Counted from the stretch's first letter, positions 14,484 to 43,133 are shown. The stretch: DNA of 48,237 bases from Patescibacteria group bacterium (GCA_038062895.1 JBBTWJ010000011.1:1-48237); one strand, 5' to 3'. Program-made: numbers and translations. Notes: a model not told the origin generated them from the sequence alone.

Positions 14484-16901
14484 ATGAGAATACTCAAATA
14501 TCCATTCGTTGTCCCTGCGTTTTTTTATCTCGCCGTTGTGTTCTCCGTCTTTTGGCCTATCCTGTGGCCACCGGCAGGGACTCTCGTTTTTGGCGATGAT
14601 ATCCATCGGTCCTATCACTTTTTTCGGCAGCTGTTTGCTGATTCAATTTCTCGGGGCGAATTTCCCTGGTGGAATCCGTATCTGTTTTCCGGTGAACCGC
14701 TGATTGCCAACCCATCCTTGGCGTTTTGGTATCCCGTTAATTGGCTCTTTGCCCTCATCCCGTATCGCTTCGTCTATTCCTGGATCATACCCCTTCACAT
14801 TTTCTGGGCGATGATGGGAATGTACACCCTCGTACAGGGTATGACAAACAGCAAACAACAAAGAGCAAAGAGCAAACAGTTTTCTCTTATCCGTTCTCTG
14901 TTCTCTGTTATCTGTTATCCTTTTTCCTTAGGTCCCTGGCTTGCCGGTTTCATCTTTGGTCTTTCCGGTTTTTTCATGGGCCGGGTATGGGAAGGGCACA
15001 TTGAGCTTATTCTTTCGGCTTCCTGGATGCCGTGGGTGGTAGCGGCATTTGGGCAGTTGGCGCGCGCTGAGGTCGGCATGCCGTCGTTTTCGCATCATCA
15101 AGGTCCGGACCACTCATTAGCCCATCGAAGTTTTTTTGCCAAGGCCGTGATGATGCTCAAAACGTCACGCCTTCCCGCACGCGAGATTGTACTGACGGCA
15201 ATCGTATTCGCCATGCAGATACTCGCCGGCTACCAGACGATGGCGCTTCTTACATTGGAGGCAGTGTTCATTATTGCGTTGTTTCAAAGCATTGCGATGA
15301 AGAGTTTTCAACCATTACTCCGAACTGGTCTTGCTGGTCTTACTGGTCTTGCTCTTGCCGCTATTCAGATTCTCCCCGGACAGGAATTTTTTCGGTCAAG
15401 CATCCGGACATACGCACTCCCGTATACCTGGGCGGTGTTTGGTTCGTATACGATAGAGAATCTCAAACAGCTCTTTGATCCATTTTTCTTCGGATTCCCA
15501 TGGAGCTATAAAGGCCCCAGTCCAAACTTCGGAGAAATGGCCGCCTACATCGGAAAAGGGGGATTGCTCTTGGCCTTCATTTCGATCTTTGTATTTGTTA
15601 TTCAGTTATTTCAAAAGGTATTCAAACGAAGTAACCCAGTAACGAAATCACAAGTCAGTAAATATTCGTACTTACTAAGTAACGAAGTAACGAAATTGCT
15701 AACTAACCAGAGCCAAATAGTAGTATTTGGCGGTGCGATGCTCTGTGTTGCCATCTTTGGTCTGTGGGTATCGTTTGGGTGGAACGCGCCAATTGACCTC
15801 AATAAAATGCTTTGGGATATCGTTCCTATGTACAAATACCTCCGCATCCCGTCCCGTCACCTTATTCTCTTTGTCTTCGGCATGAGCGCCCTCGCCGGCT
15901 TGGGATTCCATCAGATTATCAGATACCTTAGCTTCGCAAGGCCTGGCCTTGCGAAGCTGGCTGTTTTGATCATTTCATTGGTTATTATTGTTGATATGCT
16001 CTGGTTTGCAAAAGTATTTGTTCTATTGCGTCCCGACCCGGTGACGCGGCATAATCAGGAATTAGTCTCCTATCTTCAAAAAAATGTAGGTCTTGCACGA
16101 ATCCTCCCCAACTTTAACGTCGGCATGGGGACGCGTGATGCTCTGGATTTTGACGCCGCGATGGGGTACCGGATGTATAGCGCCTCGGGTTATGATCCTG
16201 CCATCCTTCGCAATTATTATGAATTTGCCGCGGCCGTGGCAGGGATAGAAAACCCCGATGTCCAGCAAACCGACGTGCAGATTCCGTATCTCTTGCCTGC
16301 TTCCCGATACACGGACTTTCTCAACGTCAAATATATGTTTGTTCCGTCCTGGTTTGACTCGGTGGCCGGATCACACCCCAAATACAAACTCGTCATGGAG
16401 GAAAACAAAAAAGATTACTTCCGGCTGTATGAAAATACTCAAGTATTACCTAGATTTTTTCTTGTACCCACACTCGTAGGTTTGCCCAATAGGGATGCAA
16501 TCGCCCGCGCAATACGGATGGGGGAGCACGATCCGGGGAAGGTCATCCTCGGGCAAACGAAAGATATTCCGGCTGGATTTACCGCTGATTGCGGCACGCA
16601 AAAACTTCCGGCGGTTACTGTCATCTCCTATTCAATGAATAAAATAATTTTGGAAACGAATGCACCCTGCAATGCATTTTTAGCAACGAGTGAAGTCATG
16701 TATCCGGGGTGGCAAGCCACGATTGATGGTAAAGGATCAAACTTCATTGAAGGCAACCTGGCCTTCCGCACGATCCCAGTGCCCTCGGGCCGCCACACCA
16801 TCATCATGACCTTCCGGCCAACAGTATTTATTGTGGGTTTCTTCGTGAGCATCGCGGCCCTTCTTGGCAGTTTGATTTGGATGAAAAAAACGGTATCCTA
16901 G
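14484..16901 (+). CDS. YfhO-family membrane protein (paralog 2)
   Basis: PWWNPYLFSGEP; SEVMYPGWQATIDG...FRTIPVPSGRH. Confidence 0.8.
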   Translation: MRILKYPFVVPAFFYLAVVFSVFWPILWPPAGTLVFGDDIHRSYHFFRQLFADSISRGEFPWWNPYLFSGEPLIANPSLAFWYPVNWLFALIPYRFVYSWIIPLHIFWAMMGMYTLVQGMTNSKQQRAKSKQFSLIRSLFSVICYPFSLGPWLAGFIFGLSGFFMGRVWEGHIELILSASWMPWVVAAFGQLARAEVGMPSFSHHQGPDHSLAHRSFFAKAVMMLKTSRLPAREIVLTAIVFAMQILAGYQTMALLTLEAVFIIALFQSIAMKSFQPLLRTGLAGLTGLALAAIQILPGQEFFRSSIRTYALPYTWAVFGSYTIENLKQLFDPFFFGFPWSYKGPSPNFGEMAAYIGKGGLLLAFISIFVFVIQLFQKVFKRSNPVTKSQVSKYSYLLSNEVTKLLTNQSQIVVFGGAMLCVAIFGLWVSFGWNAPIDLNKMLWDIVPMYKYLRIPSRHLILFVFGMSALAGLGFHQIIRYLSFARPGLAKLAVLIISLVIIVDMLWFAKVFVLLRPDPVTRHNQELVSYLQKNVGLARILPNFNVGMGTRDALDFDAAMGYRMYSASGYDPAILRNYYEFAAAVAGIENPDVQQTDVQIPYLLPASRYTDFLNVKYMFVPSWFDSVAGSHPKYKLVMEENKKDYFRLYENTQVLPRFFLVPTLVGLPNRDAIARAIRMGEHDPGKVILGQTKDIPAGFTADCGTQKLPAVTVISYSMNKIILETNAPCNAFLATSEVMYPGWQATIDGKGSNFIEGNLAFRTIPVPSGRHTIIMTFRPTVFIVGFFVSIAALLGSLIWMKKTVS
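14844..14920. repeat. Two opposed degenerate heptamer arrays inside CDS
   Basis: CAAACAG/CAAAGAG units followed by CTGTTCT/CTGTTAT units. Confidence 0.75.
15060..15183. repeat. About 120-bp stem-loop element, in-frame (homolog of 7161..7282)
   Basis: Arms GCATCATCA (15092) and TGATGATGC (15148). Confidence 0.7.
15625..15708. repeat. Degenerate octamer array (AGTAACGA) inside CDS
   Basis: AACGAAGT AACCCAGT AACGAAAT...AAGTAACGAAGTAACGAA. Confidence 0.7.
15930..15958. repeat. Family A REP, in-frame (SFARPGLAKL)
   Basis: Identical to 4889..4917 but read in another frame. Confidence 0.95.
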
Positions 16902-16912
16902 CGTGGGAAGGA

Positions 16913-17431
16913 ATGAATATGTTTGCTGTTTCCTCATTACATACTTATCGATCAACCAAGATGGTGCCTTTGGTAAAAGCGGCATCATTCGTGAGAAGTC
17001 TCCGTAAGCAAGGCAAGACCGTCGGGCTTTGCCATGGGGGGTTTGACCTTCTCCATCCCGGTCACGTCAAACATTTCGAGTCCGCTAAAAAGCATTGTGA
17101 TGTGCTGGTGGTATCCGTGACGAGCGACCGGTTTGTGGAGGGCCGCAAGGGCGCAGGCCGGCCCATATATCCGGATCAACTCCGGGCGTACATGATCGCA
17201 AGCCTGGCAGTGGTGGACTACGTCGTCATTACGGATTTTAAACTTGGCGTGGACGTCATTCATGCGCTCCAACCGTCTCTCTATATCAAAGGTTCAGACT
17301 TTGTCGGGAAACAGACGCCTGGCATCACCGCCGAGCGGGAAGCGATTCAATCGGTCGGCGGCACGATGGTCTATACCAAAGACCCCAAACTTTCGACGAG
17401 CGCAATCATCGAGCACATCCGGAAATCATGA
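16913..17431 (+). CDS. Cytidylyl/adenylyltransferase, RfaE(HldE) domain II-like
   Basis: GGFDLLHPGH (HxGH), KG.GRPI, YIKGSDF, STS. Confidence 0.85.
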   Translation: MNMFAVSSLHTYRSTKMVPLVKAASFVRSLRKQGKTVGLCHGGFDLLHPGHVKHFESAKKHCDVLVVSVTSDRFVEGRKGAGRPIYPDQLRAYMIASLAVVDYVVITDFKLGVDVIHALQPSLYIKGSDFVGKQTPGITAEREAIQSVGGTMVYTKDPKLSTSAIIEHIRKS

Positions 17432-19650
17432 AAAAGTTTCTTCCATTTTTCCTGTATGCCGTTCTCATTGTTGTCGTATTTTGGGGTGTGCTGGTGCCCC
17501 CGGAAGGAAAAATACTTTTTGGTCCGGATATCACGCGGTACCATTATTTTCAGAGGCAGTTTTTAGGATCAGTACTTCGTGAGGGGAGTGTGCCGTGGTG
17601 GAATCCCTACACCATGATGGGAGTTCCGTACCTCGAGCATCCGCAAATTCCTTTTTGGTACCTCCCCAATCTTCTGTTTGTGTTGTTGCCGGTGAATGTC
17701 GCAATGTCCTGGTATATCGCTCTCCACCTATTTATCGCGATGGTGGGAATGTACACCCTGCTTCGCAGGGAATTATCCAATAATCCAATAATCAAATTAT
17801 CCAATGAAAAACAAGAACCCATTCACTTATTTACTCATTCACCCATCACGCAACTCTCCGCTTGGGCTGCGGGCGTCGCTTTTGGACTGTCTGCGTACTT
17901 TGTGGCCCGGATTCCTGCCGGGCACATCGATATCATTGCCGCTTCCTCGTGGATGCCAATCGTCATTATTGCATTTTTCCACCTCATGCGCGCCCAGGTC
18001 TCCGCCAGCCGGCGGATTCCCGCGCGCTTCATCGCATTGGCCGGAATTGCATTTGCCATTCAACTTCTCGCCGGACATCCGATGGTTGCGGTGTTTACGC
18101 TGGAGGCGGTTTTTATTATCACCGTGATTCACGCTATTCCTGCTTTCGCTTCTGCTTCTACTCTTACCACTGGCCTTGCTCGTGTTGCTCGAGTTGCTTT
18201 TACTGCTGGTCTTGCTATTCTTACTGGTCTTGCTTTAGCTGCTATTCAAATCCTCCCCAACGCCCAATTTATTGCCCACAGCATCCGGACGTTTCCGTTT
18301 CCGGACAGCTGGGCGCAGCTTGGCACGCCGACGATTGGACACATGCTAGAATTTCTCGATCCATTTTATTTCTATTCGCGACTCCCAGACTCGGGATTTG
18401 GATTTGAGCACGTGGGCTATATCGGAAAAATACCGTTATTATTTGCCATGATAGCCATCGTGTCCTGGATTGTAGCCAAGAGGAAACGGTGGGAAGTTCC
18501 TGCGTTTGTTATGGTTTCATTCTTTGGTATCTGGATGTGGTTGGGTAATAATGCGCCGTTTGATCTTTTTTCTTGGGTGCGTTCTTGGATGCCTCTCTAC
18601 AGTCAGATCCGTATTCCTGCCCGTCACATCATACTATTTGTGTTTTCGGCAAGCGTGCTGTTCGGATTAGGACTCAACGTTATTCAGTCAAAAGCAATTC
18701 AGATAATCGCGACCGTTTTATTGCTTGTTGAGCTTGTTCCTTTTGCCCGCCATCACCTTTCTTTGGTGCCTACGCCAGACAAGGCCCAGGACAGCGAACT
18801 GACTTCCACTCTTACGAGTGATCACAGTCTCTATCGTTTTCTTCCTGATTTTTATCACGGCGATCCCATGCGGGATGTGTTGGAATTTAACGCGCCGATT
18901 ATCCATAAAATCCAATCCGTGTCCGGCTATGATACGCCGCCCATCCGGAATATGTATGAGTTTTTGTTGAGTGTAAACGATTACCGGCTTTCTGATGTAT
19001 TACCATACACCGAGTCCATCCCGCCGTTTCGTGCCATCACCTCACCGTACCTTAACTTCCTCAACGTTAAATACATTCTTGTACCGATAGTCCAAGATCC
19101 GATAAAAAGAATCCAGACAAAGCAGTTTTCGTTGATTAAAGAAAGTGCAACGCGAGGATGGAGGGTATATGAAAATAAAAACGTAATGTCTCGTTTTTTT
19201 ATCGCAACGAACATGCAAAAAGAATCGAATAGGGGAAGGGTGTTATCAACAATCAAGCAGGGGAGCGTGGATCCAAAAACAACTATTGTAGTGGATGAAA
19301 ATTCTGTAGATACGTCAGGGTTTTTTCCGGATTGTCCGGAGGGAACGACTGGCAATATTTTGGTTGAGTCCTACGGATATGGAACGATTCGTCTAACCGC
19401 CAACACGCTTTGCAACGCGTTTCTCGCCACAAGCGAAGTCATGTATCCCGGCTGGACGGCCGCGATTGATGGGAAATCAGTGCCGGTTTTTGAAAGCAAC
19501 GCAGCCTTCCGGACGGTGTATCTGCCCCGAGGCACCCACACCATCGTCTTTTCCTACCGCCCGACAATCGTACTTTGGGGAGCCATGATAAGCATTTTAA
19601 CCATTTTTGTAATATTTCTAGCTTCGCAAGGCCTGGCCTTGCGAAGCTAA
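17428..19650 (+). CDS. YfhO-family membrane protein (paralog 3)
   Basis: PWWNPY..GVP; SEVMYPGWTAAIDG...FRTVYLPRGTH; C-terminus encoded by a REP. Confidence 0.8.
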   Translation: MKKFLPFFLYAVLIVVVFWGVLVPPEGKILFGPDITRYHYFQRQFLGSVLREGSVPWWNPYTMMGVPYLEHPQIPFWYLPNLLFVLLPVNVAMSWYIALHLFIAMVGMYTLLRRELSNNPIIKLSNEKQEPIHLFTHSPITQLSAWAAGVAFGLSAYFVARIPAGHIDIIAASSWMPIVIIAFFHLMRAQVSASRRIPARFIALAGIAFAIQLLAGHPMVAVFTLEAVFIITVIHAIPAFASASTLTTGLARVARVAFTAGLAILTGLALAAIQILPNAQFIAHSIRTFPFPDSWAQLGTPTIGHMLEFLDPFYFYSRLPDSGFGFEHVGYIGKIPLLFAMIAIVSWIVAKRKRWEVPAFVMVSFFGIWMWLGNNAPFDLFSWVRSWMPLYSQIRIPARHIILFVFSASVLFGLGLNVIQSKAIQIIATVLLLVELVPFARHHLSLVPTPDKAQDSELTSTLTSDHSLYRFLPDFYHGDPMRDVLEFNAPIIHKIQSVSGYDTPPIRNMYEFLLSVNDYRLSDVLPYTESIPPFRAITSPYLNFLNVKYILVPIVQDPIKRIQTKQFSLIKESATRGWRVYENKNVMSRFFIATNMQKESNRGRVLSTIKQGSVDPKTTIVVDENSVDTSGFFPDCPEGTTGNILVESYGYGTIRLTANTLCNAFLATSEVMYPGWTAAIDGKSVPVFESNAAFRTVYLPRGTHTIVFSYRPTIVLWGAMISILTIFVIFLASQGLALRS
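17771..17855. repeat. Degenerate octamer arrays inside CDS
   Basis: AATTATCC/AATAATCC units, then ATTCACTT/ATTTACTC/ATTCACCC units. Confidence 0.7.
19620..19648. repeat. Family A REP, downstream flank of RAYT-1; encodes the end of YfhO paralog 3
   Basis: AGCTTCGCAAGGCCTGGCCTTGCGAAGCT followed by AA, forming the TAA stop. Confidence 0.95.
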
Positions 19651-19668
19651 CTGTTTTTAGATTCCGTC

Positions 19669-20385
19669 TTATTCCACATCGATCGTTGAGTCGTTGAGGA
19701 TATATGCAGCATTTTCATTTTGGTCAAATCCTTCAACGAAAGACTCGTAGGATGTCGGTCCTTTTTTTCCAAATTGACTGAGTATTTCATTTGGATTTAC
19801 CCATTTAGTCTGTCGCAGAGCCAAATATTCCCTGTATGAACTATATTCCCAGCTTCGCAAGGCCTGGCCTTGCGAAGCTAAGTCTTTTGGTTTTATAAGA
19901 CTGATCGGGTTTCTGTGAATGTAGCGCGTGAGGTAGAGTAGCTGCTCATCAGAATTAATCAATACCGCTTTATAGACTCCTTGAAACAGCGGGCCGACTC
20001 GTTTATATTTTTTGTTGAAATACATGGTATAGCGAGTGCCCAAGGAATTGAGAAAACGATCAATAATGTCTTCATCTTGTTGGTGAACGAGAAAATGAAA
20101 ATGATTGGGCATGAGGCAGTATGCGAGAAGCGATAGACTTTCATGAAAGTTATTCAGTCTGAGAAGTTTTATGGCTTTATCTTTGGCACGCCATGGTGAA
20201 GTCTCGTCCATGATGGTTGCCCGAAGCGCAATTTCATCTTTTGGTTCTAAATAGGTTTTGAGATAGGAGAGGAATACACCATAATCTTGTCGATCTCGAA
20301 AAATCTTTTGTTTATCAACGCCTCTGTTGTACAGGTGATACCGGGCGTCTGATGCATATTGTTTCGTTCGATTTTTCGCTGGCAT
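19669..20385 (-). CDS. REP-associated tyrosine transposase-like HUH nuclease (Y1_Tnp), RAYT-1
   Basis: YHLYNRG, AYCLMPNHFH (HUH), GPLFQG.YK, YIHRNP catalytic Tyr, YSSY; flanked by palindromes. Confidence 0.9.
   Translation of the reverse strand: MPAKNRTKQYASDARYHLYNRGVDKQKIFRDRQDYGVFLSYLKTYLEPKDEIALRATIMDETSPWRAKDKAIKLLRLNNFHESLSLLAYCLMPNHFHFLVHQQDEDIIDRFLNSLGTRYTMYFNKKYKRVGPLFQGVYKAVLINSDEQLLYLTRYIHRNPISLIKPKDLASQGQALRSWEYSSYREYLALRQTKWVNPNEILSQFGKKGPTSYESFVEGFDQNENAAYILNDSTIDVE
19851..19879. repeat. Family A REP inside the RAYT-1 CDS (LASQGQALRS)
   Basis: Perfect 29-bp copy between RNP and YSSY. Confidence 0.95.
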
Positions 20386-20410
20386 ATCTTCAACTTATCA
20401 TAGAATTTCT

Positions 20411-20439
20411 AGCTTCGCAAGGCCAGGCCTTGCGAAGCT
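20411..20439. repeat. Family A REP, upstream flank of RAYT-1 (opposite orientation)
   Basis: AGCTTCGCAAGGC-CAG-GCCTTGCGAAGCT. Confidence 0.95.
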
Positions 20440-20555
20440 AAGATTTCAGATTATTAGGAGTAATTTTTGAAATGACGACACAATGTGGACAACATAAAAG
20501 CGAATACTAGACTTTGATACCTTCAACGGATAATATCTTGATGAGGCCTCTAATC

Positions 20556-20984
20556 ATGAATACTAATCCAACTACCCATAAATTTGTTGCAGTGCTCAAT
20601 AAGAAGATCGAAACCGGCAAACTCATGAACGGGTTGGGGCATATGGCTGCCGGTTTATCTGCGCTTGTTCCGGATATAGACGCAATGCGATTTGACAGCT
20701 ATATCGATAAGGACGGTGGGGTTCACCCAAGTATATCCGATAATCCATTTATCATACTATCGAGTGATAACTCCAACCAGATCCGTACGTTGAGAAACAC
20801 CCTCAAAGAACATGCGATCCCGTATACAGATTTTACCAGCACCATGACCGTTGGCACGTTTGCAGAACAAAAACAGAGAACAAGTGAAACAATAGAAGCA
20901 GAACTTGAATATTACGGCATCTGTTTTTTCGGTGATCGGATGGTACTTTCCGAATTAACAAAGAAATTTTCACTTTGGAGATAA
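20556..20984 (+). CDS. DUF2000-like protein (PTH2-like fold)
   Basis: KFVAVLNKK...GKLMN.LGH..GL, Y.DKDG..HP.IS, LEYYGICFFG, LTKKFSLW. Confidence 0.65.
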   Translation: MNTNPTTHKFVAVLNKKIETGKLMNGLGHMAAGLSALVPDIDAMRFDSYIDKDGGVHPSISDNPFIILSSDNSNQIRTLRNTLKEHAIPYTDFTSTMTVGTFAEQKQRTSETIEAELEYYGICFFGDRMVLSELTKKFSLWR

Positions 20985-21013
20985 TCTATCAGAATAATAT
21001 TCTACAACTCACT

Positions 21014-21433
21014 ATGCTTACAGATGCTGAAAAAAAGAAACTGAAATCCGCAGTAATGGACGCCATGAAGCACGCGTATCCCAAGGGCGCCGTCACAACG
21101 TACGCCGCGGCGGTACTCACAAAATTAGGAAATATTTACAGCGCGGCGCAATATTTTTCCGACACGTATTCGCTTACGCTTCACGGTGAGCAATGTGCCC
21201 TAAGTCATGCGGCCGTCCATGGAGAAGGGGAGATCGTCGCCATGGCAGTCTCGAGCAATGAAAAGCTTGCAAAAGGAGAGTTTTGCTATCCTTGCCACAT
21301 GTGCAAACAGCTTCTATACGAAAGCCAGCGCCGGTCAAAATTACCCATGACGATCCTGCTCCTTAATCAATCGGGAGAAGAAAAAGAACTTCTCCTTGAC
21401 GAAATGCTCGGCTCCTACCTCTGGCCGAAGTGA
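21014..21433 (+). CDS. Cytidine deaminase family protein
   Basis: HGE...PCHMC zinc motif, AYP, AAVLT..G.IY. Confidence 0.75.
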   Translation: MLTDAEKKKLKSAVMDAMKHAYPKGAVTTYAAAVLTKLGNIYSAAQYFSDTYSLTLHGEQCALSHAAVHGEGEIVAMAVSSNEKLAKGEFCYPCHMCKQLLYESQRRSKLPMTILLLNQSGEEKELLLDEMLGSYLWPK

Positions 21434-21448
21434 CCGTATCAATTATTT

Positions 21449-21477
21449 AGCTTCACCAAGTCAGACTTGGCGAAGCT
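21449..21477. repeat. REP variant A' (one mismatch), intergenic
   Basis: AGCTTCACCAAGT-CAG-ACTTGGCGAAGCT followed by AGTTTTTTCCC, as at 12082. Confidence 0.85.
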
Positions 21478-21550
21478 AGTTTTTTCCCACATAGTATTTT
21501 TTACATGCTTCGCGATCTTTGATTGCACAATCAAAGTGGAGTGGTATATT

Positions 21551-22603
21551 ATGACAGCCATGCAGGAATCCATTGACCGTGTACAGTTTCTCTCTACGTT
21601 TTCCAAAACCCACAGTGCCCAGTCCGTTGTCGATCAGTTGACCAAACTCAAGTCAATGAAGATCCTCGTCATCGGCGAGGCGATTATCGATGAATACCAC
21701 TATACGAGCCCGATGGGGAAATCTTCCAAAGAGCCGTTGGTCGTCCACCGCTACGCGCGGGAAGAATCCTTTGCCGGCGGGGCTCTTGCCACCGTCAACC
21801 ACACCGCGGCGCTATCGGACAACGTGAAACTCGTCACGCTTTTGGGTAAATCCCCGTCGTATGAAGCCTTCATCAGATCGCATTTGCAAAAAACCATTCG
21901 GCCCAAGTTTTTTTCCCGGGAAGGGTCGACGATCATTAAACGTCGGTATATCGACCAATACGCGAACCAGAAATTATTTCAGGTGAGCTTCATCTGGGAT
22001 GACATGATTACGCCGCAGCTGGAAAAGACCATTGCGGTTTATCTCACCCGCGAGCTCCCCAAGTATGATTGCGTCATGGTCAATGACTTCGGTCATGGAT
22101 TTTTGACGTCTAAACTCATCCGGCTTATTGCCCGCAAATCGAAGATTCTTGCTCTGAATGTGCAAGCCAACAGTGCCAACTATGGCTTTAACATCGTCAC
22201 CAAATATCCACGTGCGGACATCGTCACGACCGATATCCATGAGATCAGACTTGCCACCCATGACCGCTATAGCGATATCTTGAAGCTGGCCCGTAGTATC
22301 GCACGGCATCTGCACACGCAGACGTTAGTAGTCACCCGCGGCCCGCATGGCGCCACGGGGTATACGAAGGACAAAGGGTTTGTGGATGCGCCGGCCTTCA
22401 CGGATCGGATTATCGATCGAGTGGGAGCAGGTGACGCATTATATTCCGTCATCGCGCCGTGTTTGGCCAGTGGTATGGATTTAACCACGGCATTATTTAT
22501 GGGGAACGTTGCGGCGGCCATCAAAATTCAAACCGTCGGCAATAAGATGCCTGTGACGTTTGACGATCTGAAGGAGTTTATTGCAAAGCTTTTAGCCTCG
22601 TAA
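21551..22603 (+). CDS. PfkB-family sugar-phosphate kinase, RfaE(HldE) domain I-like
   Basis: LVIGEAIIDEY, DFGHG, DRVGAGD anion-hole motif; start 21551 or 21560. Confidence 0.85.
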   Translation: MTAMQESIDRVQFLSTFSKTHSAQSVVDQLTKLKSMKILVIGEAIIDEYHYTSPMGKSSKEPLVVHRYAREESFAGGALATVNHTAALSDNVKLVTLLGKSPSYEAFIRSHLQKTIRPKFFSREGSTIIKRRYIDQYANQKLFQVSFIWDDMITPQLEKTIAVYLTRELPKYDCVMVNDFGHGFLTSKLIRLIARKSKILALNVQANSANYGFNIVTKYPRADIVTTDIHEIRLATHDRYSDILKLARSIARHLHTQTLVVTRGPHGATGYTKDKGFVDAPAFTDRIIDRVGAGDALYSVIAPCLASGMDLTTALFMGNVAAAIKIQTVGNKMPVTFDDLKEFIAKLLAS

Positions 22604-22642
22604 GGTACTACCTTGCGAAGCTGCAAGGTAGTACCTTGCAAA
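22594..22642. repeat. Family B REP doublet (29-bp plus 19-bp hairpin)
   Basis: AGCCTCGTAAGGTACTACCTTGCGAAGCTGCAAGGTAGTACCTTGCAAA; contains the kinase stop codon. Confidence 0.9.
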
Positions 22643-22649
22643 CTTGTAT

Positions 22650-23684
22650 ATGACTATTCTCGTTACTGGTGGCGCAGGCTACGTAGGAGCTCTCCTCGTT
22701 CCCATGTTGCTCAAAAAAGGCTATCACGTCCGTGTATTGGATCTGTTTCTCTATGGTGATGTGCTCCCGCCTCACAAAAATCTTGAACTCGTGAGCGGCG
22801 ACATTCGGGAAGGTAGAGTGATCAAAAAAGCATTGAACGGTGGGATCGACACCGTTATCCATCTGGCGTGCATCTCCAACGATCCGAGCTTTGAGCTAGA
22901 TCCCGCTTTGGGAAAATCCATTAACTATGACGCGACCATTCAACTCATTGATTTGTCAAAACAGGCAGGTGTCAGGCGGTTTATCTATGCTTCCAGTTCG
23001 AGTGTCTACGGCGTAAAGAGCGAAAAAAATGTCACGGAAGATTTGCCTCTCACACCTCTTACGGATTATTCCAAATATAAAGCGCTTTGCGAAGAGTATT
23101 TGTTGAAACTTCAGGATAAGAATTTCACCCCGGTCATCATCCGGCCCGCGACGGTGTGTGGGTTTAGCCCCAGGATGCGCCTTGATCTCACCGTCAACAT
23201 TTTGACGATCAGCGCGTTGGTCCATAAATCTATGACGGTTTTTGGAGGATCGCAGAAGCGGCCCAATATCTATATTGCGGATATGTGTCGCGCGTATATC
23301 AGATTATTGACAGCCCCCAAGAAAAAGATCGCAGGGAAGATTTTCAATGCAGGATTTCAAAACTATACCGTGATGGAGTTGGCAAAAATGGTCAAGCGGG
23401 TTCTCGGAGATCCTTCCATTGCTATTGATGTCAAACCCACGAGCGACAATCGTTCCTATCATATATCTTCCGCAAAAATGAAAAAGGAGCTGGGATTTGA
23501 GGCTAAACACACGGTCGAGGAGGCGATAGGAGATATCAAAAAAGCCTATGAAAAAGGATTACTGCCCGACGCCCTGACGGATAGCCGATATTATAATATC
23601 CGCATGTTGTCATCCTCGGGCTTGACCCGGGGATCCAGTTCTTTGTCAAAGATGGATTCCCGCCTTCGCGGGAATGACAGGTGA
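22650..23684 (+). CDS. NAD-dependent epimerase/dehydratase (extended SDR)
   Basis: TGGAGYVG, ASSSSVYG, YSKYK; C-terminal ~24 aa derive from a family C element. Confidence 0.9.
   Translation: MTILVTGGAGYVGALLVPMLLKKGYHVRVLDLFLYGDVLPPHKNLELVSGDIREGRVIKKALNGGIDTVIHLACISNDPSFELDPALGKSINYDATIQLIDLSKQAGVRRFIYASSSSVYGVKSEKNVTEDLPLTPLTDYSKYKALCEEYLLKLQDKNFTPVIIRPATVCGFSPRMRLDLTVNILTISALVHKSMTVFGGSQKRPNIYIADMCRAYIRLLTAPKKKIAGKIFNAGFQNYTVMELAKMVKRVLGDPSIAIDVKPTSDNRSYHISSAKMKKELGFEAKHTVEEAIGDIKKAYEKGLLPDALTDSRYYNIRMLSSSGLTRGSSSLSKMDSRLRGNDR
23608..23679. repeat. Family C element forming the C-terminus of the epimerase
   Basis: TGTCATCCTCGGGCTTGACCCGGGGATCCAG...TGGATTCCCGCCTTCGCGGGAATGACA. Confidence 0.9.
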
Positions 23685-23698
23685 ATATAGGTGAATCT

Positions 23699-24649
23699 AT
23701 GAAAATAGATAAAACACTGTTTTATCAGACGCTTCGTATCCGTATGGTGGAGGAGGCGATAGCCCGCGAGTATCCCAAACAGGAAATGCGCTGTCCCACT
23801 CATCTTTGTATCGGGCAGGAGGCGATCGCCGCAGGCGTTTGTGCGGCTCTGGCAAAGGAAGATGTTGTTTTTTCGACCCACCGTTCCCACGGGCATTACC
23901 TGGCAAAGGGCGGCAATTTGCCGGCAATGATTGCGGAACTCTATGGTAAAGCGACCGGTTGTTCCGGAGGTATCGGCGGCTCGATGCACCTTATTGACTT
24001 GAAAGCGAATTTTTTGGGGGCTGCGCCCATCGTTGCTTCCACGATTTCCGTCGCCGTGGGTGTCGCGTTTGCCCGAAAGATGCAAAATAAGCCAGGAATT
24101 GTGGTTGCATTTTTTGGCGACGCGGCAGTCGAGGAGGGGACGGCGCATGAAGTCATGAATTTTGCGGTTCTCAAGCGCCTTCCGGTGCTCTTTGTGTGTG
24201 AAAACAATTTATACTCAACAGTCACTCATTTACGTGATAGACAGCCCCGTCGTCCTATCGCTGATTTTGCCCGCGGTCATGGCATGAAGGCTTTGACCAT
24301 AGATGGACAGGACGTACGGCAGGTTTTTGCCCGCGCGAAAAAATTTGTAGATACTGTCCGCAGCGGAACAGGGCCAATGTTCCTCGAATGTCTTACCTAC
24401 CGCTATCGCGAACACTGCGGCCCCAACGAAGACGGGCCTGCATTGCGTCCCGCCGCGGAACTCATGCGATGGAAACGGAATGATCCGGTGGTGGGTATGA
24501 CACGATTTTTTAAAGAAAAAGATCTTGATGCCATGCGAGAAAAGATAGGTAAGGAAATCCGGGATGCATTTACGTTTGCCCGTCAGAGCCCGTTTCCTGT
24601 CGTGAATATGAGGGATGACCATCTTGTCTATAAGGAGTCCCGGCCATGA
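23699..24649 (+). CDS. TPP-dependent dehydrogenase E1 component alpha-like
   Basis: HLCIGQEA, HRSHGH, GGSMH, GDAA..EG...CENN TPP motif. Confidence 0.9.
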   Translation: MKIDKTLFYQTLRIRMVEEAIAREYPKQEMRCPTHLCIGQEAIAAGVCAALAKEDVVFSTHRSHGHYLAKGGNLPAMIAELYGKATGCSGGIGGSMHLIDLKANFLGAAPIVASTISVAVGVAFARKMQNKPGIVVAFFGDAAVEEGTAHEVMNFAVLKRLPVLFVCENNLYSTVTHLRDRQPRRPIADFARGHGMKALTIDGQDVRQVFARAKKFVDTVRSGTGPMFLECLTYRYREHCGPNEDGPALRPAAELMRWKRNDPVVGMTRFFKEKDLDAMREKIGKEIRDAFTFARQSPFPVVNMRDDHLVYKESRP

Positions 24650-25722
24650 GGAAGCTCACCTACGCCCAGGCCATTAACGAAGCTCAAGCGATTGCCCTTA
24701 CCCGGGACAGCAGTGTTTTTCTCATCGGAGAAGGCGTGCCGGATGCTAAGGGAATTTTCGGTACTACCGTGGGCCTTGCGGACAAATTTCCTGGGAGAGT
24801 CCTGGATATGCCGGTAGCCGAAAATGGGATGACCGGCATTTGCGTGGGCGCGGCGATATCTGGCATGCGTCCGATTATTGTGCACGCCCGGATGGACTTT
24901 ACCCTCATGGCTTTTGACGCGATTGCCAATACTGCGGCGAAATGGTTTTTCATGTTCGGACAACAGCAAAGCGTTCCGATTGTCATCCGTATGATTGTAG
25001 GACGGGGATGGGGACCGGGGCCGCAGCACGCCCAAAGTTTGCAGGCGCTCTACTCCCACATTCCGGGACTCAAAGTGGTTATGCCCACTGTTCCCTCTGA
25101 TGCGAAGGGTTTGTTTCTGTCTGCTATTGCCGATAACAATCCGGTTATATTCATCGAACACCGCTGGCTCCATGGGCTGACGGGAGATGTGCCGAACGGT
25201 TATTACACTGTTCCAATTGGCACCGCGCGGATTGCCCAAAAAGGAAACGATGTGACGATTGTGGGAGCATCGCATATGACGATAGAAGCCATCCGTGCCG
25301 CGAAAGCGTTGATGGGAGAGGGAATTCATGCGGAAGTCGTAGACCTGCGGTCCGTCCGTCCGCTCGATCGTGAGACAATTCTCCGATCCGTGAAGAAAAC
25401 GCATCGTTTGATCGTCGCCGATACCGGCTGGAAATCCTTTGGCATCGGGGCAGAAATTGTGGCGATGGTTGCCGAATCCGGTATACGGTTGGCGGCGCCA
25501 CCGCTGCGCATCGCTCTTCCTGATCTGCCCACCCCCACGAGTTCGGCATTGGCTGCCTCGTACTACCCGACGAGCGTTGATATCTTTAGGAGCGGCCTCG
25601 TTCTTGTTGGAAAAAAACAATCCTTTGTCGATCGTGCAACAGCGCGCTATTCCTCTGCCGTCACCGGTACCCCCGGCTATGCCGCCGACCAACCCGACCC
25701 CACCTTCCTCGGCCCATTTTAG
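24646..25722 (+). CDS. TPP-dependent dehydrogenase E1 component beta-like
   Basis: DMPVAE, GPQHAQ, PVIFIEHR, DLRSVRPLD. Confidence 0.9.
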   Translation: MRKLTYAQAINEAQAIALTRDSSVFLIGEGVPDAKGIFGTTVGLADKFPGRVLDMPVAENGMTGICVGAAISGMRPIIVHARMDFTLMAFDAIANTAAKWFFMFGQQQSVPIVIRMIVGRGWGPGPQHAQSLQALYSHIPGLKVVMPTVPSDAKGLFLSAIADNNPVIFIEHRWLHGLTGDVPNGYYTVPIGTARIAQKGNDVTIVGASHMTIEAIRAAKALMGEGIHAEVVDLRSVRPLDRETILRSVKKTHRLIVADTGWKSFGIGAEIVAMVAESGIRLAAPPLRIALPDLPTPTSSALAASYYPTSVDIFRSGLVLVGKKQSFVDRATARYSSAVTGTPGYAADQPDPTFLGPF

Positions 25723-25769
25723 CTTCGCAAGGTACTACCTTGCGAAGCTGCAAGGTAGTACCTTGCAAA
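25721..25769. repeat. Family B REP doublet, upstream flank of RAYT-2
   Basis: AGCTTCGCAAGGTA-C-TACCTTGCGAAGCT plus GCAAGGTAGTACCTTGCAAA; overlaps the TAG stop of E1 beta. Confidence 0.95.
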
Positions 25770-25803
25770 ATGAATTCCAGGGAGTATACTGAAGCGAAAC
25801 ACT

Positions 25804-26499
25804 ATGCCGGCAAAGAATTCTGTTAAGGAATTTGTATCTGATTCGTATTACCATATATATAACCGCGGGGTGGAGAAACGAACGATTTTTCAGGATCCCC
25901 AGGATTATGCCGTATTTCTTTCTTATTTAAAAACGTATTTACTCCCCAAAGATGAAATTGCGCTGCGATCAGTTATTACCGATCAAAAACGTTCGTATAA
26001 AGAAAAGGATCTTGCCCTAAAAGCGCTAAAACTCAATAATTTTTCTGATTCTTTAAGACTGATTTCTTACTGTCTGATGCCGAATCATTTCCATTTTCTC
26101 GTGAAACAAACAGAAGCCATGACGATTGATCGGTTTATGCAGTCATTTTGTACCCGCTACACACTGTATTTTAATCGTAAATATCGGAGAGTTGGGGGTT
26201 TGTTTCAAGGATTGTATAAAGCGGTTCGGATTACGACAGATGAACAGCTTCTTCATGTATCTCGATATATCCACCGTAATCCTATAACTTTAGCTTCGCA
26301 AGGTACTACCTTGCGAAGCTATACGTATTCATCATACTTGAAATTTCTTAGCGATATTCATGTAGCATGGGTACATCCGGAGGATATTTTAGAATATTTT
26401 AATAAATCCGGATACAAAGGATACCAAAAGTTTGTTGAAGGTCCGGCAGAAGAGGAAAATCTGCGGTTAATTCTTACGATGACCCTTGATGATGAATAA
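25804..26499 (+). CDS. REP-associated tyrosine transposase-like HUH nuclease (Y1_Tnp), RAYT-2
   Basis: YHIYNRG, YCLMPNHFH, GGLFQG.YK, YIHRNP, YSSY; clear paralog of RAYT-1. Confidence 0.9.
   Translation: MPAKNSVKEFVSDSYYHIYNRGVEKRTIFQDPQDYAVFLSYLKTYLLPKDEIALRSVITDQKRSYKEKDLALKALKLNNFSDSLRLISYCLMPNHFHFLVKQTEAMTIDRFMQSFCTRYTLYFNRKYRRVGGLFQGLYKAVRITTDEQLLHVSRYIHRNPITLASQGTTLRSYTYSSYLKFLSDIHVAWVHPEDILEYFNKSGYKGYQKFVEGPAEEENLRLILTMTLDDE
26292..26320. repeat. Family B REP inside the RAYT-2 CDS (LASQGTTLRS)
   Basis: Perfect AGCTTCGCAAGGTACTACCTTGCGAAGCT between RNP and YSSY. Confidence 0.95.
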
Positions 26500-26502
26500 T
26501 TT

Positions 26503-26528
26503 AGCCTCGCAAGGTACTACCTTGCAAA
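26503..26528. repeat. Family B REP (collapsed doublet), downstream flank of RAYT-2
   Basis: AGCCTCGCAAGGTACTACCTTGCAAA. Confidence 0.9.
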
Positions 26529-26570
26529 CATTGTAAATACATTGCGTTGTGCGCCTCTCCATGCTAGAGT

Positions 26571-27725
26571 ATGCGATATCGTATGAAACCACCTTCATGG
26601 AAATTGCCCTACGCGTATCTCAAAAAACAGTTCGAACGGCCGGGCACGTATCTTAAAAAAATTGAAGCGGTTGCCCGTCGCGGGGATTTTACGCTCGGGA
26701 AAGAGGTCGCTGTTTTTGAAGCGCAGGCTGCCAAAATGCTGGGCGTCAACCATGTTATCGGCGTGGGCAACGGGACGGACGCCATATATCTCGTTCTTAA
26801 AGCTCTTGGTATCGGGGCAGGGGACGAGGTTATCACTGCTCCGAATAGTTTTGTGGCGACTGCTGCGGCCATTGCATTAACGGGCGCCCGGCCGGTATTT
26901 GCCGATGTGCGGGATGACTATACTATCGACCCCCAACTCGTTGAAAAAGTAATCACAATAAAAACAAAAGCCATCATTCCCGTCCACCTCACGGGTCAGC
27001 CCGCGGATATGAAGCCAATTATGGCCATCGCCAAGCGCCACAATTTGGCAGTTGTCGAGGACGTGGCGCAGGCATATCTCGCGCGCTACGACGGCAAATA
27101 TCTGGGAACCATCGGGACGGCGGGGGCCTATAGCTTCCACCCGATGAAGATTCTCCACGTCTGGGGCGACGGCGGGATGATTGCGACCAATGATGCGATT
27201 CTCGCCGCCAAACTTAAGCTCTGGCGCAACCACGGTTTAAAGACGAGAAACGAGGTTGAATTTTTTGCCCATAACAGCAGACTGGATACCATCCACGCCG
27301 CGATTGCTTCGGTCCTTTTGCCCCAGATGCCTGGTGTGGTCCAAAAGCGCCAGGCACTTGCCCGGATGTATGACCGGCTCCTTAAGCCGCTTGATCAGTA
27401 TGTGCATGTACCCGATAGAAATCTGTGTGTTGCTCCCATAGTTCATACGTACACCAATTATGTCGTGATGGCCAAACGTCGGGATGAACTGATCGCGTAT
27501 CTTGCCAAACAGGGGATAGAGGCCGTCATCCAATATCCTATCCCCATTCATTTGCAGAAAGCCGCCCGGTATTTGGGATACAAAAAGGGAGATTTTCCTG
27601 TTTGTGAGCACCAGGCCGATGAAATCGTCACCCTGCCGTGTAACCAATACATGACCACGAAGGATGTGCGCTTTGTTGCCGATACAATGCGCGCGTTCTA
27701 TGTCAAGCGCGCGATAGCGATATGA
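26571..27725 (+). CDS. DegT/DnrJ/EryC1/StrS PLP-dependent sugar aminotransferase
   Basis: GNGTDA, IPVHLTG, EDVAQ, SFHPMK, GDGG, NSRLD; start 26571 or 26583. Confidence 0.9.
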   Translation: MRYRMKPPSWKLPYAYLKKQFERPGTYLKKIEAVARRGDFTLGKEVAVFEAQAAKMLGVNHVIGVGNGTDAIYLVLKALGIGAGDEVITAPNSFVATAAAIALTGARPVFADVRDDYTIDPQLVEKVITIKTKAIIPVHLTGQPADMKPIMAIAKRHNLAVVEDVAQAYLARYDGKYLGTIGTAGAYSFHPMKILHVWGDGGMIATNDAILAAKLKLWRNHGLKTRNEVEFFAHNSRLDTIHAAIASVLLPQMPGVVQKRQALARMYDRLLKPLDQYVHVPDRNLCVAPIVHTYTNYVVMAKRRDELIAYLAKQGIEAVIQYPIPIHLQKAARYLGYKKGDFPVCEHQADEIVTLPCNQYMTTKDVRFVADTMRAFYVKRAIAI

Positions 27726-29523: not shown

Positions 29524-30783
29524 ATGACTCGACAAAAAAAAACGATATTGACTCTATTCCTGCTTGGTTTGTTGTTCCGTCTGTTTTTGGCATTCAACGC
29601 ATACGACACGATTGTCTTTGATGCAAAGGGCTACTCGGATTTTGCCATACAGTTCTTGAGTGGCAAATGGCCCATTGACTGTTGTGCCAAAAACATGGGC
29701 TACGGCGCATTTCTCGCGCTTGTTTACAAGTTCTTCGGGATTGAAAATCTGACTGCTGTCCGTCTAGTCCACATTGTCTTTGATCTTGTTTCCGCCCTTC
29801 TTCTTTTTGAAACCGCCAAAAAACTATTCAATCAGAAAGCAGCGTTGTTCTCGTTTACTATGTATCTGTTTAACCCCTTTACTGCGGCATTTACCGGGCT
29901 GGTACTTGCTGAAACCGTGAGCATATTTTTGGTCTCGCTTCTGTTCTATATCCTCTCGCGGGCAGGATGGAAGTCCAGCCCGATACTCTGGTTGAGTTTC
30001 GGTCTGACGGCCGGCCTCCTGCTTTTTACCCGGCACTCCTTCTACTATTTCCTCTTTGTCTTTTTTGCGGTATTGGGGGTATGGTTTGCAAGGTACTACC
30101 TTGCAGCCTCGCAAGGTACTACCTTGCGAGGCTGGAAGGTTATAGTTCGATTTTATAGTTTTTTGTTTGCCGGGTTTCTGCTCGCTTCATCGTATTCGCT
30201 CATGGTCAATTTCAAAACATACGGTAAACCATCGCTCGTGCCACTTTATAATCTGAAGTACGAAATCATTTATCTCAACTTTTTTCGCTGGAAGTATCCG
30301 GAAGTCGAGTTTAAAGGCGAAATCCCCCAGTATGGAGAGGTGGTCCAAAGCTACTGGAATACGCCGATAGAAGGCAAAGCTGCTCATTCAGAAAAGTATA
30401 AACAGATGCTCCTTGCACGGCTGCCGGGGGAGTGGCCTACATTTCTTTCCAATCTCGCGATGAATATCGTGTGGCTTTGGGATAAAGATCATATCTATAC
30501 CTACGTCGATACGTTTTATCCGGCTGATCAGTGGCCGATGCGGATTCTCAACATTGGGCTTATCGGATTATGGGCGATAGGGGTCATAGGACAGGTACGG
30601 AAGAAGGGAAGAAAAGTACTCCAAGAGCCGGTATTTCTTTTTTCCATCCTGCTCTTTTTCTACATCACGCTCCTGTTTCCTTTATTATCCAACGAGAGCC
30701 GCCACACCCTGGTCTACTATCCGATTCTCTCCCTCTGGGCGGGAAGCGGAGTACAATTTGTGTTTACGAAGTTATTTCGTTAG
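29524..30783 (+). CDS. GT-C (PMT_2/GT39-like) membrane glycosyltransferase
   Basis: FDAKGY after TM1, FNPFTA...LAET, ESR; paralog of 33331. Confidence 0.7.
   Translation: MTRQKKTILTLFLLGLLFRLFLAFNAYDTIVFDAKGYSDFAIQFLSGKWPIDCCAKNMGYGAFLALVYKFFGIENLTAVRLVHIVFDLVSALLLFETAKKLFNQKAALFSFTMYLFNPFTAAFTGLVLAETVSIFLVSLLFYILSRAGWKSSPILWLSFGLTAGLLLFTRHSFYYFLFVFFAVLGVWFARYYLAASQGTTLRGWKVIVRFYSFLFAGFLLASSYSLMVNFKTYGKPSLVPLYNLKYEIIYLNFFRWKYPEVEFKGEIPQYGEVVQSYWNTPIEGKAAHSEKYKQMLLARLPGEWPTFLSNLAMNIVWLWDKDHIYTYVDTFYPADQWPMRILNIGLIGLWAIGVIGQVRKKGRKVLQEPVFLFSILLFFYITLLFPLLSNESRHTLVYYPILSLWAGSGVQFVFTKLFR
30085..30133. repeat. Family B REP doublet, inverted, in-frame (FARYYLAASQGTTLRG)
   Basis: TTTGCAAGGTACTACCTTGCAGCCTCGCAAGGTACTACCTTGCGAGGCT. 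Confidence 0.95.
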
Positions 30784-42341: not shown

Positions 42342-43133
42342 ATGGTGAAGCTTTCTTCTCTCTCCCTCCTCATCCCGGCCTACAATGACGAGACGACGAT
42401 AGAAAAGGTCGTGGCAGAAGCTATTGCTGTGGGCAAGCGCGTGGCCAAGAAATTTGAGATTGTTGTCGTCAACGATGGATCGACGGACGCTACTGCCAGC
42501 CTCGCAAGGTACTACCTTGCGAGGCTGCACGCAAAAGGCAGACTCATTATCCACACTGTCAATCAGGGATATGGCCGGACGATTAAGGAATTGTATTACG
42601 CAGGGATATACGACTGGCTCTTTACGATCCCCGGAGATTATCAGATCGGGGCACGGGAGCTTGAGACAATAATAAATAGCCGTGGTTTTTTTCTGTCATC
42701 CCCGCGCAGGCGGGGATCCAGCCCTAAAAAGATGGATTCCCGTTTTCACGGGAATGACAACATTAGTATTCACCCTGATATGATCCTCGGCTGGCGGGTC
42801 AAGAGAAATGATCCATCCAACAGACTTCTTTCTTCATGGATATACAATACGCTCCTCCGATGGCTCTTTGGTATCACTTTACATGACATCAATTCCGTCC
42901 GGCTCATGCGCCGATCAATACTGAAGAACATAACGCTCACATCACATTCTGCCTTCGTCGACGCAGAGCTCGTCATCCGCGCTATGAAGTTGGGCTATAC
43001 TATTGCAGAAGTTCCCATTGTGCATCGCGCTAGGAGCGACGATCGCCCCGGCGGCGGCAACCAATGGGGGACGATGTGGAAAACAGTGAGGGAGATGATA
43101 AATTTTAAAATCCAGACCAATCCAGACCAATAA
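42342..43133 (+). CDS. GT2 glycosyltransferase with two in-frame palindromic inserts
   Basis: IPAYND, VNDGSTD, NQGYG, PGDYQ, HDIN. Confidence 0.85.
   Translation: MVKLSSLSLLIPAYNDETTIEKVVAEAIAVGKRVAKKFEIVVVNDGSTDATASLARYYLARLHAKGRLIIHTVNQGYGRTIKELYYAGIYDWLFTIPGDYQIGARELETIINSRGFFLSSPRRRGSSPKKMDSRFHGNDNISIHPDMILGWRVKRNDPSNRLLSSWIYNTLLRWLFGITLHDINSVRLMRRSILKNITLTSHSAFVDAELVIRAMKLGYTIAEVPIVHRARSDDRPGGGNQWGTMWKTVREMINFKIQTNPDQ
42498..42526. repeat. Family B REP, in-frame (SLARYYLARL)
   Basis: AGCCTCGCAAGGTACTACCTTGCGAGGCT. Confidence 0.95.
42694..42759. repeat. Family C element, in-frame (66 bp)
   Basis: TGTCATCCCCGCGCAGGCGGGGATCCAG...TGGATTCCCGTTTTCACGGGAATGACA. Confidence 0.9.

Follow-up and report, generated by a model that had tools for sequence, protein, structure and literature searches.

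We examined a 48,237-nucleotide stretch of DNA from a Patescibacteria group bacterium, a small groundwater organism (GCA_038062895.1, JBBTWJ010000011.1:1-48237; hereafter the window), which is contig C11 of a 1.23 Mb assembly in 27 contigs. It carries two outward-facing genes, RAYT-1 and RAYT-2, that resemble REP-associated tyrosine transposases (RAYTs), together with hairpins of the repetitive extragenic palindromic (REP) type (Table 1). The two proteins are 58% identical (139/238), and in both a REP lies in frame between the tyrosine motif YIHRNP and a conserved SSY, 8-14 codons downstream of the catalytic tyrosine, where it is translated as LASQG-x-x-LRS. That two RAYT-like genes each hold their own REP in frame after the catalytic tyrosine was the core of the original prediction, and it was confirmed by direct reading and by a palindrome scan. 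RAYT-1 is bracketed by near-perfect palindromes of 29-31 nt, the third and perfect copy being the internal one, which starts 44 nt past the first base of the tyrosine codon. The palindrome of RAYT-2 has the same outer stem but a different apex (GGTACTACC vs. GGCCAGGCC or GGCCTGGCC). The proposal that RAYT-2 is also flanked by its own REP holds for the upstream side (25721-25749), but the downstream copy (26503-26525) is degenerate. The upstream double hairpin overlaps the stop codon of an open reading frame (ORF) at 24646-25722, and the hairpin downstream of RAYT-1 provides the final 10 codons (LASQGLALRS) of a 740-aa ORF at 17428-19650 together with its stop codon.

Table 1. RAYT-like genes and REP hairpins in the window, by position.
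Feature	Position	Strand	Sequence	Description
RAYT-1-type REP	4889-4917			In frame, 608-aa ORF, LASQGLALRS; other variant at the orthologous site in sister species G030
RAYT-1-type REP	15930-15958			YfhO-like 806-aa ORF, other frame (SFARPGLAKL); identical in G028 and G029, other variant in G030
REP hairpin downstream of RAYT-1	19619-19649		TAGCTTCGCAAGGCCTGGCCTTGCGAAGCTA	Apex GGCCTGGCC
RAYT-1 coding sequence	19669-20385	-		238 aa; predicted Y1 HUH nuclease; HUH codons 20095-20103; Tyr155 codon 19921-19923, in YIHRNP
RAYT-1 internal in-frame REP (site 2)	19851-19879		AGCTTCGCAAGGCCTGGCCTTGCGAAGCT (+ strand)	Perfect; encodes LASQGQALRS, aa 169-178
REP hairpin upstream of RAYT-1	20410-20440		TAGCTTCGCAAGGCCAGGCCTTGCGAAGCTA	Apex GGCCAGGCC
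Imperfect related REP	21449-21479			Spacer of ORFs 20975-21433 and 21467-22603
Double REP hairpin, RAYT-2 type	22594-22640			End of ORF 21467-22603
Double REP hairpin upstream of RAYT-2	25721-25766		AGCTTCGCAAGGTACTACCTTGCGAAGCT (25721-25749)	Apex GGTACTACC; overlapping second hairpin to 25766
RAYT-2 coding sequence	25804-26499	+		231 aa; predicted Y1 HUH nuclease; HUH codons 26086-26094; Tyr155 codon 26266-26268
RAYT-2 internal in-frame REP (site 2)	26291-26321		TAGCTTCGCAAGGTACTACCTTGCGAAGCTA	Perfect; encodes LASQGTTLRS, aa 163-172
Degenerate REP downstream of RAYT-2	26503-26525		GCAAGGTACTACCTTGC (26509-26525)	Palindromic only in inner 17 nt; outer arms decayed
RAYT-2-type REP	30104-30134			In frame, PMT_2 family ORF; present in G029, absent in G028 and G030
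RAYT-1-type REP	38096-38128			In frame, 581-aa ORF on the minus strand; site empty in G029, protein 15 aa shorter there
RAYT-2-type REP	42497-42527			In frame, GT2 domain of ORF 42342-43133; a different palindrome in each of three sister species, same codons

Sequences of this kind are common in the window. When up to 2 mismatches are allowed, the 12-mer AGCTTCGCAAGG is found there 28 times, a number reached by none of 100 shuffled sequences (mean 3.3, maximum 9). The internal hairpins of RAYT-1 and RAYT-2 fold with computed energies of -16.4 and -16.1 kcal/mol as single-stranded DNA (z -6.6 and -9.4) and of -27.8 and -23.0 kcal/mol as RNA. Neither is followed by a T run when the sequence is read directly, and a role for them as intrinsic terminators was therefore set aside. 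A contig from run X4, which belongs to a different study, covers 25735-26800, across the internal copy of RAYT-2, with zero differences. Public Logan DNA contigs end at REP copies, including the internal ones, as is expected for repeats, and short-sided joints (23-66 letters) in metagenome contigs were not accepted as rearrangements.

Both proteins match the Pfam family Y1_Tnp (PF01797; 32.1 bits for RAYT-1 and 39.4 for RAYT-2, cut-off 23), with H95, H97 and Y155 invariant in 63 aligned sequences. The tyrosine signature of class 2 (RAYT) enzymes, Y-x-x-x-N-P (PMC6006769), is present in both as YIHRNP, N159 being invariant and P160 found in at least 90% of the sequences. In an AlphaFold2 model of RAYT-2 based on the 63-sequence alignment (mean pLDDT 91.5), Y155 lies on helix 146-157, and the best solved Foldseek match to this model is E. 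coli TnpAREP bound to REP (4er8_A, E 3.8e-6, TM by target 0.57), followed by ISDra2 and IS608 TnpA; a profile search of PDB sequences returned weak ISDra2 matches only (E 0.006). Palindromes of the flank type are also dispersed in the genome, as in other RAYT/TnpAREP systems. In three respects the genes depart from the usual description: the tetranucleotide GT[AG]G is absent from the 5' foot of the REPs in all families examined, where the feet read T(T)AGC; the scores against the NCBIfam equivalog NF047646 (41.0 and 45.9 bits) lie below its cut-off of 80; and the genes are not single-copy in their genome.

The source genome has nine RAYT-like paralogues. Divergent RAYT paralogues are unusually numerous for genomes of this size, with nine in 1.2 Mb here and up to 14 matches in approximately 0.8 Mb in other genomes of the family (G043, G054, G038), and each paralogue examined has its own REP variant. 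A palindrome of the gene's own flank type is found at the position just after the tyrosine codon, which we term site 2, in five of the nine paralogues, and these five represent four REP types and at least two reading frames. The sixth paralogue (contig C9, 31833-32450; L005) has its flank hairpin at another position, site 1, upstream of the HUH motif, while the other three have neither flank hairpins nor internal hairpins. A census of perfect palindromes in the genome gave 68 REP-like sites in approximately eight small families, with about 10-35 copies per family, which is low for REPs. With greedy ORFs as gene calls, 45 of the 68 sites lie at least 60 nt inside long ORFs and are open in frame, and 10 are intergenic. 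For some families about one third of the perfect copies are located at the RAYT locus itself. At a density of approximately 68 sites per 1.23 Mb, the chance that a 700-bp gene holds a REP is approximately 4%, compared with the observed five of nine at one spot. This count bears on one explanation of the internal copies, in which a mobile REP landed in each gene independently and by chance and has stayed there as a relic that nothing maintains. It argues against that explanation even though REPs are indeed found in many genes.

The relation between each internal copy and the flanks of its own gene was examined in homologues. Of 81 genomes of the same family that were searched, 59 were positive, and about 90 of more than 200 family-level matches were taken with their flanks, in E-value order; 80 further loci came from a collection of species-representative genomes. 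By their records, the relatives are placed in Patescibacteria lineages (Woese-, Davies-, Levy-, Beckwith-, Curtiss- and Amesbacteria, Saccharibacteria and others). Many records with close homologues (L112-L118 and others) are labelled 'uncultured Gammaproteobacteria', but their nearest named relatives are Patescibacteria and the labels are probably automatic. Genes broken by a REP would be missed, because only open frames of 120 aa or more that include the HUH motif were accepted as genes. Each coding sequence was scored by its longest exact match to its own 350-bp flanks, with a threshold of 12 nt, in 84 of the 90 family-level genes, the tyrosine-motif pattern having missed six (L033, L049, L054, L055, L061, L073), and in a second set of 64 genes (75 less 7 duplicates and 4 lacking the motif).

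All matches of at least 13 nt in the 90 family-level genes fall at two places, either site 2, which is 16-52 nt past the tyrosine codon, or site 1, which is approximately 260-290 nt upstream of that codon, in the stretch from helix A to the strand leading into the HUH motif. At the scoring threshold, site 2 accounted for 41 of the 84 family-level genes and site 1 for 23, with 3 matches in other parts of the gene; for the 64 additional genes the corresponding numbers were 12, 18 and 9, most of the last 9 being short AT-rich words. The combined totals of 53 of 148 genes at site 2 and 41 of 148 at site 1 far exceed those obtained with permuted flanks (200 permutations; mean 3.4 and maximum 9 for site 2, mean 4.2 and maximum 11 for site 1), a result that relics of chance insertion would not be expected to give. 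Four of the six unscored genes have comparable matches, of 20 nt at site-2-like positions in L033 and L049 and of 20 and 19 nt at site-1-like positions in L055 and L073, and two (L054, L061) have none. The hairpins themselves vary widely from gene to gene (e.g., TCTGCAAGGGGCCCCCTTGCAGA, TAGCCTCGAAGGGTCTCACCCTTCGAGGCTA, TGACAGGGCCTGGCCCTGTCA, AAAAGGTTAAACCTTTT), and the internal copy matches the flanks each time. Examples of site 1 include L040 (coding sequence 178-199), L080 and L005, and some genes hold both sites.

The predicted tracking of flanks by the internal copy thus holds at site 2 in over a third of the homologues, but it is not universal, with 18 of the 84 family-level genes having flank palindromes and no internal match, several internal copies being decayed, and one paralogue of the source genome, discussed below, differing from its flanks at the apex. 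Two of the outcomes that had been named as fatal to the prediction, a lack of the copy in most close homologues or a failure to track the flanks, were looked for in these 148 genes and neither describes what we found. In a FastTree phylogeny of the 148 proteins, which gives local support only and in which clade totals were counted by eye, a clade of 49 rows (SH-like local support 98) has a site-2 match in 38 of its 49 members, compared with 15 of 99 outside it, and such matches are almost lacking from a basal group whose canonical linker ends in PWSS[YF]. The linker is 15-21 aa long in REP-bearing proteins and 8-11 aa in REP-less ones. Plain insertion is nevertheless too simple a description, since the linker of the canonical hairpin-less paralogue is as long as that of RAYT-2 and a replacement in a GT2 gene, described below, occurred with no change of length. 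The hairpin centres lie at several offsets and frames past the tyrosine codon (34-35, 37, 40-42, 47-49 and 58 nt), as chance insertions would. A fixed three-site layout, with the upstream copy inverted and the internal copy oriented as the downstream one, was also rejected; orientation follows no rule, the internal copy being in the same orientation as both flanks in 12 cases, inverted/same in 8, inverted/inverted in 5 and same/inverted in 4.

In the structural model, both sites appear plausible as permissive places in the protein. Residues 161-172, which include the REP-encoded residues 163-172, are modelled as a short helix and loop directly after the tyrosine helix, and the sole dip in confidence in the core of the model falls at residues 161-170 (block mean pLDDT 81). 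The region of site 1 is modelled as an inserted helical hairpin (helices 51-59 and 65-76). Site 2 is at the junction of the catalytic core and the C-terminal region.

Several observations show how the copies at one locus are related to each other. In L014 the internal, upstream and downstream copies have one imperfect apex in common, and in L002 and L022 the match between the internal and downstream copies runs on for 12-14 bases past the hairpin. Within one clade the position and frame of the internal copy are constant, but the stems differ by compensatory pairs (CAAAAGG vs. CGAAGGG) and the loop differs, and the flanks change in step. Taken together, the shared apex, the shared extra bases and the in-step stem changes show that copying, not convergence, accounts for the likeness of the copies. 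The internal copy is, moreover, held at the DNA level in genes that are otherwise almost saturated: in its REP codons all 44 four-fold degenerate sites are identical, compared with 19-55% in the rest of the gene (10 overlapping, non-independent gene pairs), and the encoded peptides vary freely (QGTTLRS, QDHPLRS, QGESLQN) while the DNA is palindromic throughout. Hence the claim that the internal copy is co-maintained with the flanks is borne out by the four-fold sites, and the shared imperfections and adjacent bases fit either of the routes suggested for it, conversion or repeated self-targeting. Chance insertion with no maintenance, already at odds with the recurrence at one site, is contradicted by the permuted flanks and by such four-fold identity in otherwise nearly saturated genes, and we consider it very improbable.

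The internal REP, if locked in an essential part of the ORF, might be an unlosable master copy, a template from which the flank and dispersed REPs are re-seeded, so that enzyme and hairpin would pass on and diversify as one unit. In the clade of RAYT-2 the internal copy is the best preserved, with flanks that are half decayed (L001 downstream, L013, L015, L016), the coding bases that adjoin the internal copy are included in the downstream copies of L002 and L022, and the upstream copy of the paralogue on contig C22 has an arm specific to its internal copy, all of which such a template would explain. The paralogue on contig C7 points the other way, as its internal apex (GGCCTCGCC) differs from the flank apex (GGCATTGCC or GGCAATGCC) and is found nowhere else in the genome, and the dispersed copies match the flank apex. 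The 18 RAYT genes noted above have flank REPs with no internal copy, and we know of no mechanism that copies 30 nt out of a gene. An internal master copy is, on balance, quite improbable.

REP sites in other genes put the internal copies in a different light. REP-like hairpin sites in ORFs of the window lie at 1543, 4889, 15930, 30104, 38096 and 42497. The in-frame hosts, membrane proteins among them, include a YfhO-like protein, two proteins of the PMT_2 family and a GT2 catalytic domain. The REPs in host genes are read in all three frames (LASQGLALRS, SFARPGLAKL, ASLARYYLARL). These sites were compared with those of three other species of the genus (loci L102-L104, L107-L109, L191-L193, L195-L197, L199-L200). 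At the GT2 site, four genomes of the genus have four palindromes at the same codons; at two further host-gene sites a RAYT-1-type REP is present in three genomes and another variant in the fourth, with the frame unchanged; and two host-gene sites are filled in some species and empty in others. Since different variants occupy the same codons in sister species, the sequence comparison indicates that REP sites are stable in place and that their sequences are overwritten in situ. Conservation at the DNA level is accordingly a property of the whole REP population, of which the internal copy of a RAYT gene is one such site, distinguished from the others by its frequency. The suggestion that the internal copy is a self-identity tag is unneeded, as the same REP families are found in frame in many ordinary genes and are overwritten between species.

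We propose, with moderate confidence, that each internal copy is a REP site tolerated in a permissive loop of the RAYT ORF, and that copy-replacement re-synchronises it with the active REP family. Each RAYT would mobilise or convert its own small REP family, acting mainly near its own gene, and REP copies that land in frame in the two permissive RAYT loops would survive and pass to paralogues, the internal copy being translated as approximately ten residues, usually at site 2 and, in other relatives, at site 1. Nicking and strand transfer are established in vitro for E. coli TnpAREP, and nicking by RAYTs at hairpins with strand transfer, or else gene conversion, may be what keeps the copies identical to the active family. 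The same copy-replacement would overwrite the REPs in host genes. The strong excess of REP sites at the RAYT locus would then have two causes, an enzyme that works mostly in the vicinity of its own gene and a site that is handed down to paralogues. It is improbable that the internal copy is a dedicated device, because 45 of the 68 REP-like sites are in ordinary ORFs and variants are swapped at orthologous host sites, and it may have no function of its own.

A number of points weigh against this proposal, and most of them would suit a selected cis element, in which the enzyme binds or nicks its own single-stranded gene, or in which a stable mRNA hairpin, placed where the core meets the C-terminal region, reduces expression or cuts it short. 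Decay has gone no further in the internal copies than in the flanks, and selection on the hairpin itself would leave the same pattern. In 78 comparisons, stem pairs are kept only in the internal copy in 114 cases and only in the flank copy in 82, with 21 compensatory changes, so that internal copies are as intact as the flanks or more so. The paralogue on contig C22 has a double compensatory change that eliminates an in-frame TAG while the stem stays perfect, and site 2 has persisted in most genes of the clade of 49. The identity of the four-fold sites and the strong RNA hairpins are likewise what such an element would predict. Its position just past the tyrosine helix is suggestive, given that the C-terminal region of E. 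coli TnpAREP occupies the active site and auto-inhibits the enzyme, truncation causing hyper-activation (PMC3479197), and by analogy a regulatory role for an internal copy at the core/C-terminal junction is plausible. In addition, the enzymatic role of RAYT-1 and RAYT-2 is itself predicted from their sequences, and the intragenic majority in the REP census was obtained with greedy ORFs and no trained gene finder. A selected cis element is, however, difficult to reconcile with REPs in unrelated host genes that are equally conserved and whose variants are equally replaced, while the second hot spot before the HUH motif misfits the idea of a domain boundary. The orientation of the internal copy relative to the flanks follows no rule, neither internal hairpin in the window has a T run after it, and the internal copy is decayed or absent in many close relatives (L015, L016, L017, L021, L025, L026, L039). 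We therefore regard a selected cis element as unlikely.

Copy-replacement could also take a more novel form, which we term REP homing, in which no REP hairpin is newly inserted and the RAYT, by nicking and strand transfer, overwrites hairpin for hairpin at fixed sites, with the ORF-locked copy as an unlosable template. While we think it doubtful that this is the case, the consequences would be considerable. Inheritance, duplication and diversification would then act on enzyme and substrate together, and REP homing would give a testable mechanism for the spread and homogeneity of REP families.

The two RAYT genes enclose a 5.3-kb block (20514-25722) in which ORF translations were read as a deaminase-like protein, a sugar kinase-like protein, an NAD-dependent epimerase-like protein and two thiamine-dependent E1-type subunits, and REPs are found at three gene junctions of the block. 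A second repeat family, with arms of the CCGGGAATCC type, is present at 23599-23680 in the window, where it encodes ...SSGLTRGSS...MDSRLRGNDR in the terminal part of the epimerase-like ORF, and it is also found in the ORF at 42342-43133 and in the loci of relatives L107 and L195. The depth of public groundwater contigs over the bin that contains the CCGGGAATCC-arm repeat is 10-200 times that of neighbouring bins, which suggests that this repeat is common to many organisms in those samples.

These loci can be compared with several known systems. The subterminal hairpins of IS200/IS605 elements are recognised by TnpA as single-stranded DNA, and TnpA has the same catalytic fold as the proteins described here. 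In contrast to those elements, the present loci have no TnpB, the gene copies are not near-identical, and the hairpins are near-perfect palindromes that are dispersed as solo units. The likeness to REPtrons is closer, comprising a Y1 HUH enzyme, the Y-x-x-x-N-P motif and bracketing hairpins that are dispersed in the genome (Nunvar, 2010, PMC2817692; Messing, 2012, PMC3479197; Corneloup, 2021, PMC8266576). One copy is typical of REPtrons, and RAYTs are described as single-copy per genome (Bertels, 2017), whereas nine divergent paralogues are present here in 1.2 Mb. The REP families described here also differ from those of REPtrons in being small, in having conserved outer bases TAGC instead of a GTAG foot, and in having most of their copies inside genes.

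The closest precedent is the report by Quentin, Siguier, Chandler and Fichant (2018, BMC Genomics; PMC6006769) of in-frame REP insertions in the tnpAREP genes of subclass 2.4 and some of subclass 2.8, which means that the architecture had been described before, contrary to what the original prediction supposed. The genes of subclass 2.4 have flanking REPs and a REP inside the ORF with the frame intact, as do those analysed here, and the authors also propose a tolerated peripheral loop (PMC6006769). Their insertions are elsewhere in the protein, however, while those in Patescibacteria follow the Y motif or precede the HUH motif, as do all of the matches of at least 13 nt noted above. The available part of that paper does not mention flank covariation, maintenance at the DNA level or replacement at orthologous sites, on which its supplementary Figure S10 may bear. 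Intragenic REPs and Rickettsia palindromic elements, that is, short in-frame palindromes that add 10-30 residues, presumably as loops, have also been described (Di Nocera et al., 2013, PMC3733652). They too are short palindromic repeats in frame within protein-coding genes; here, however, this is the majority state of the REPs and it extends to the gene of the mobilising enzyme, at two recurrent sites. As reported by Nunvar et al. (2013, PMC3686654), orthologous RAYTs of related strains may be associated with different REP classes, an 'orthoswitch' in which new variants may partly replace old ones. The difference here is that the switch is visible codon for codon at fixed in-frame sites, both in the RAYT ORF and in host genes.

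The central architecture, a RAYT gene with its own in-frame REP, is thus not new in kind. A full-text literature search found no paper on RAYTs of Patescibacteria with internal REPs, with the qualification that the supplements of PMC6006769 and PMC3733652 may bear on novelty, and a term search of the available text of PMC2817692, PMC8266576 and PMC5581495 found no mention of an internal or intragenic REP in a RAYT gene. A preprint that names both CPR and RAYT proved to have no bearing on the matter. As far as the full-text search shows, the new elements are the occurrence in Patescibacteria, the recurrence at two sites that lie outside the HuH-Y interval, the measured covariation of internal copies and flanks, the conservation at the DNA level, and the codon-for-codon evidence of replacement in situ in both RAYT and host genes.

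The means by which REPs are copied and stay uniform, and the cellular role of RAYTs, are long-standing questions on which this lineage bears. It represents an unusually clean natural experiment, with many RAYT paralogues per genome, each with a small REP family, and with sites fixed within reading frames, which allows orthologous positions to be aligned codon for codon. For the source genome the label 'extragenic' proves misleading, as most of its REPs are intragenic in the greedy-ORF census. That the hairpins are held at the DNA level, swapped in situ and tolerated inside proteins, including the enzyme itself, narrows the mechanisms to replacement at existing hairpins.

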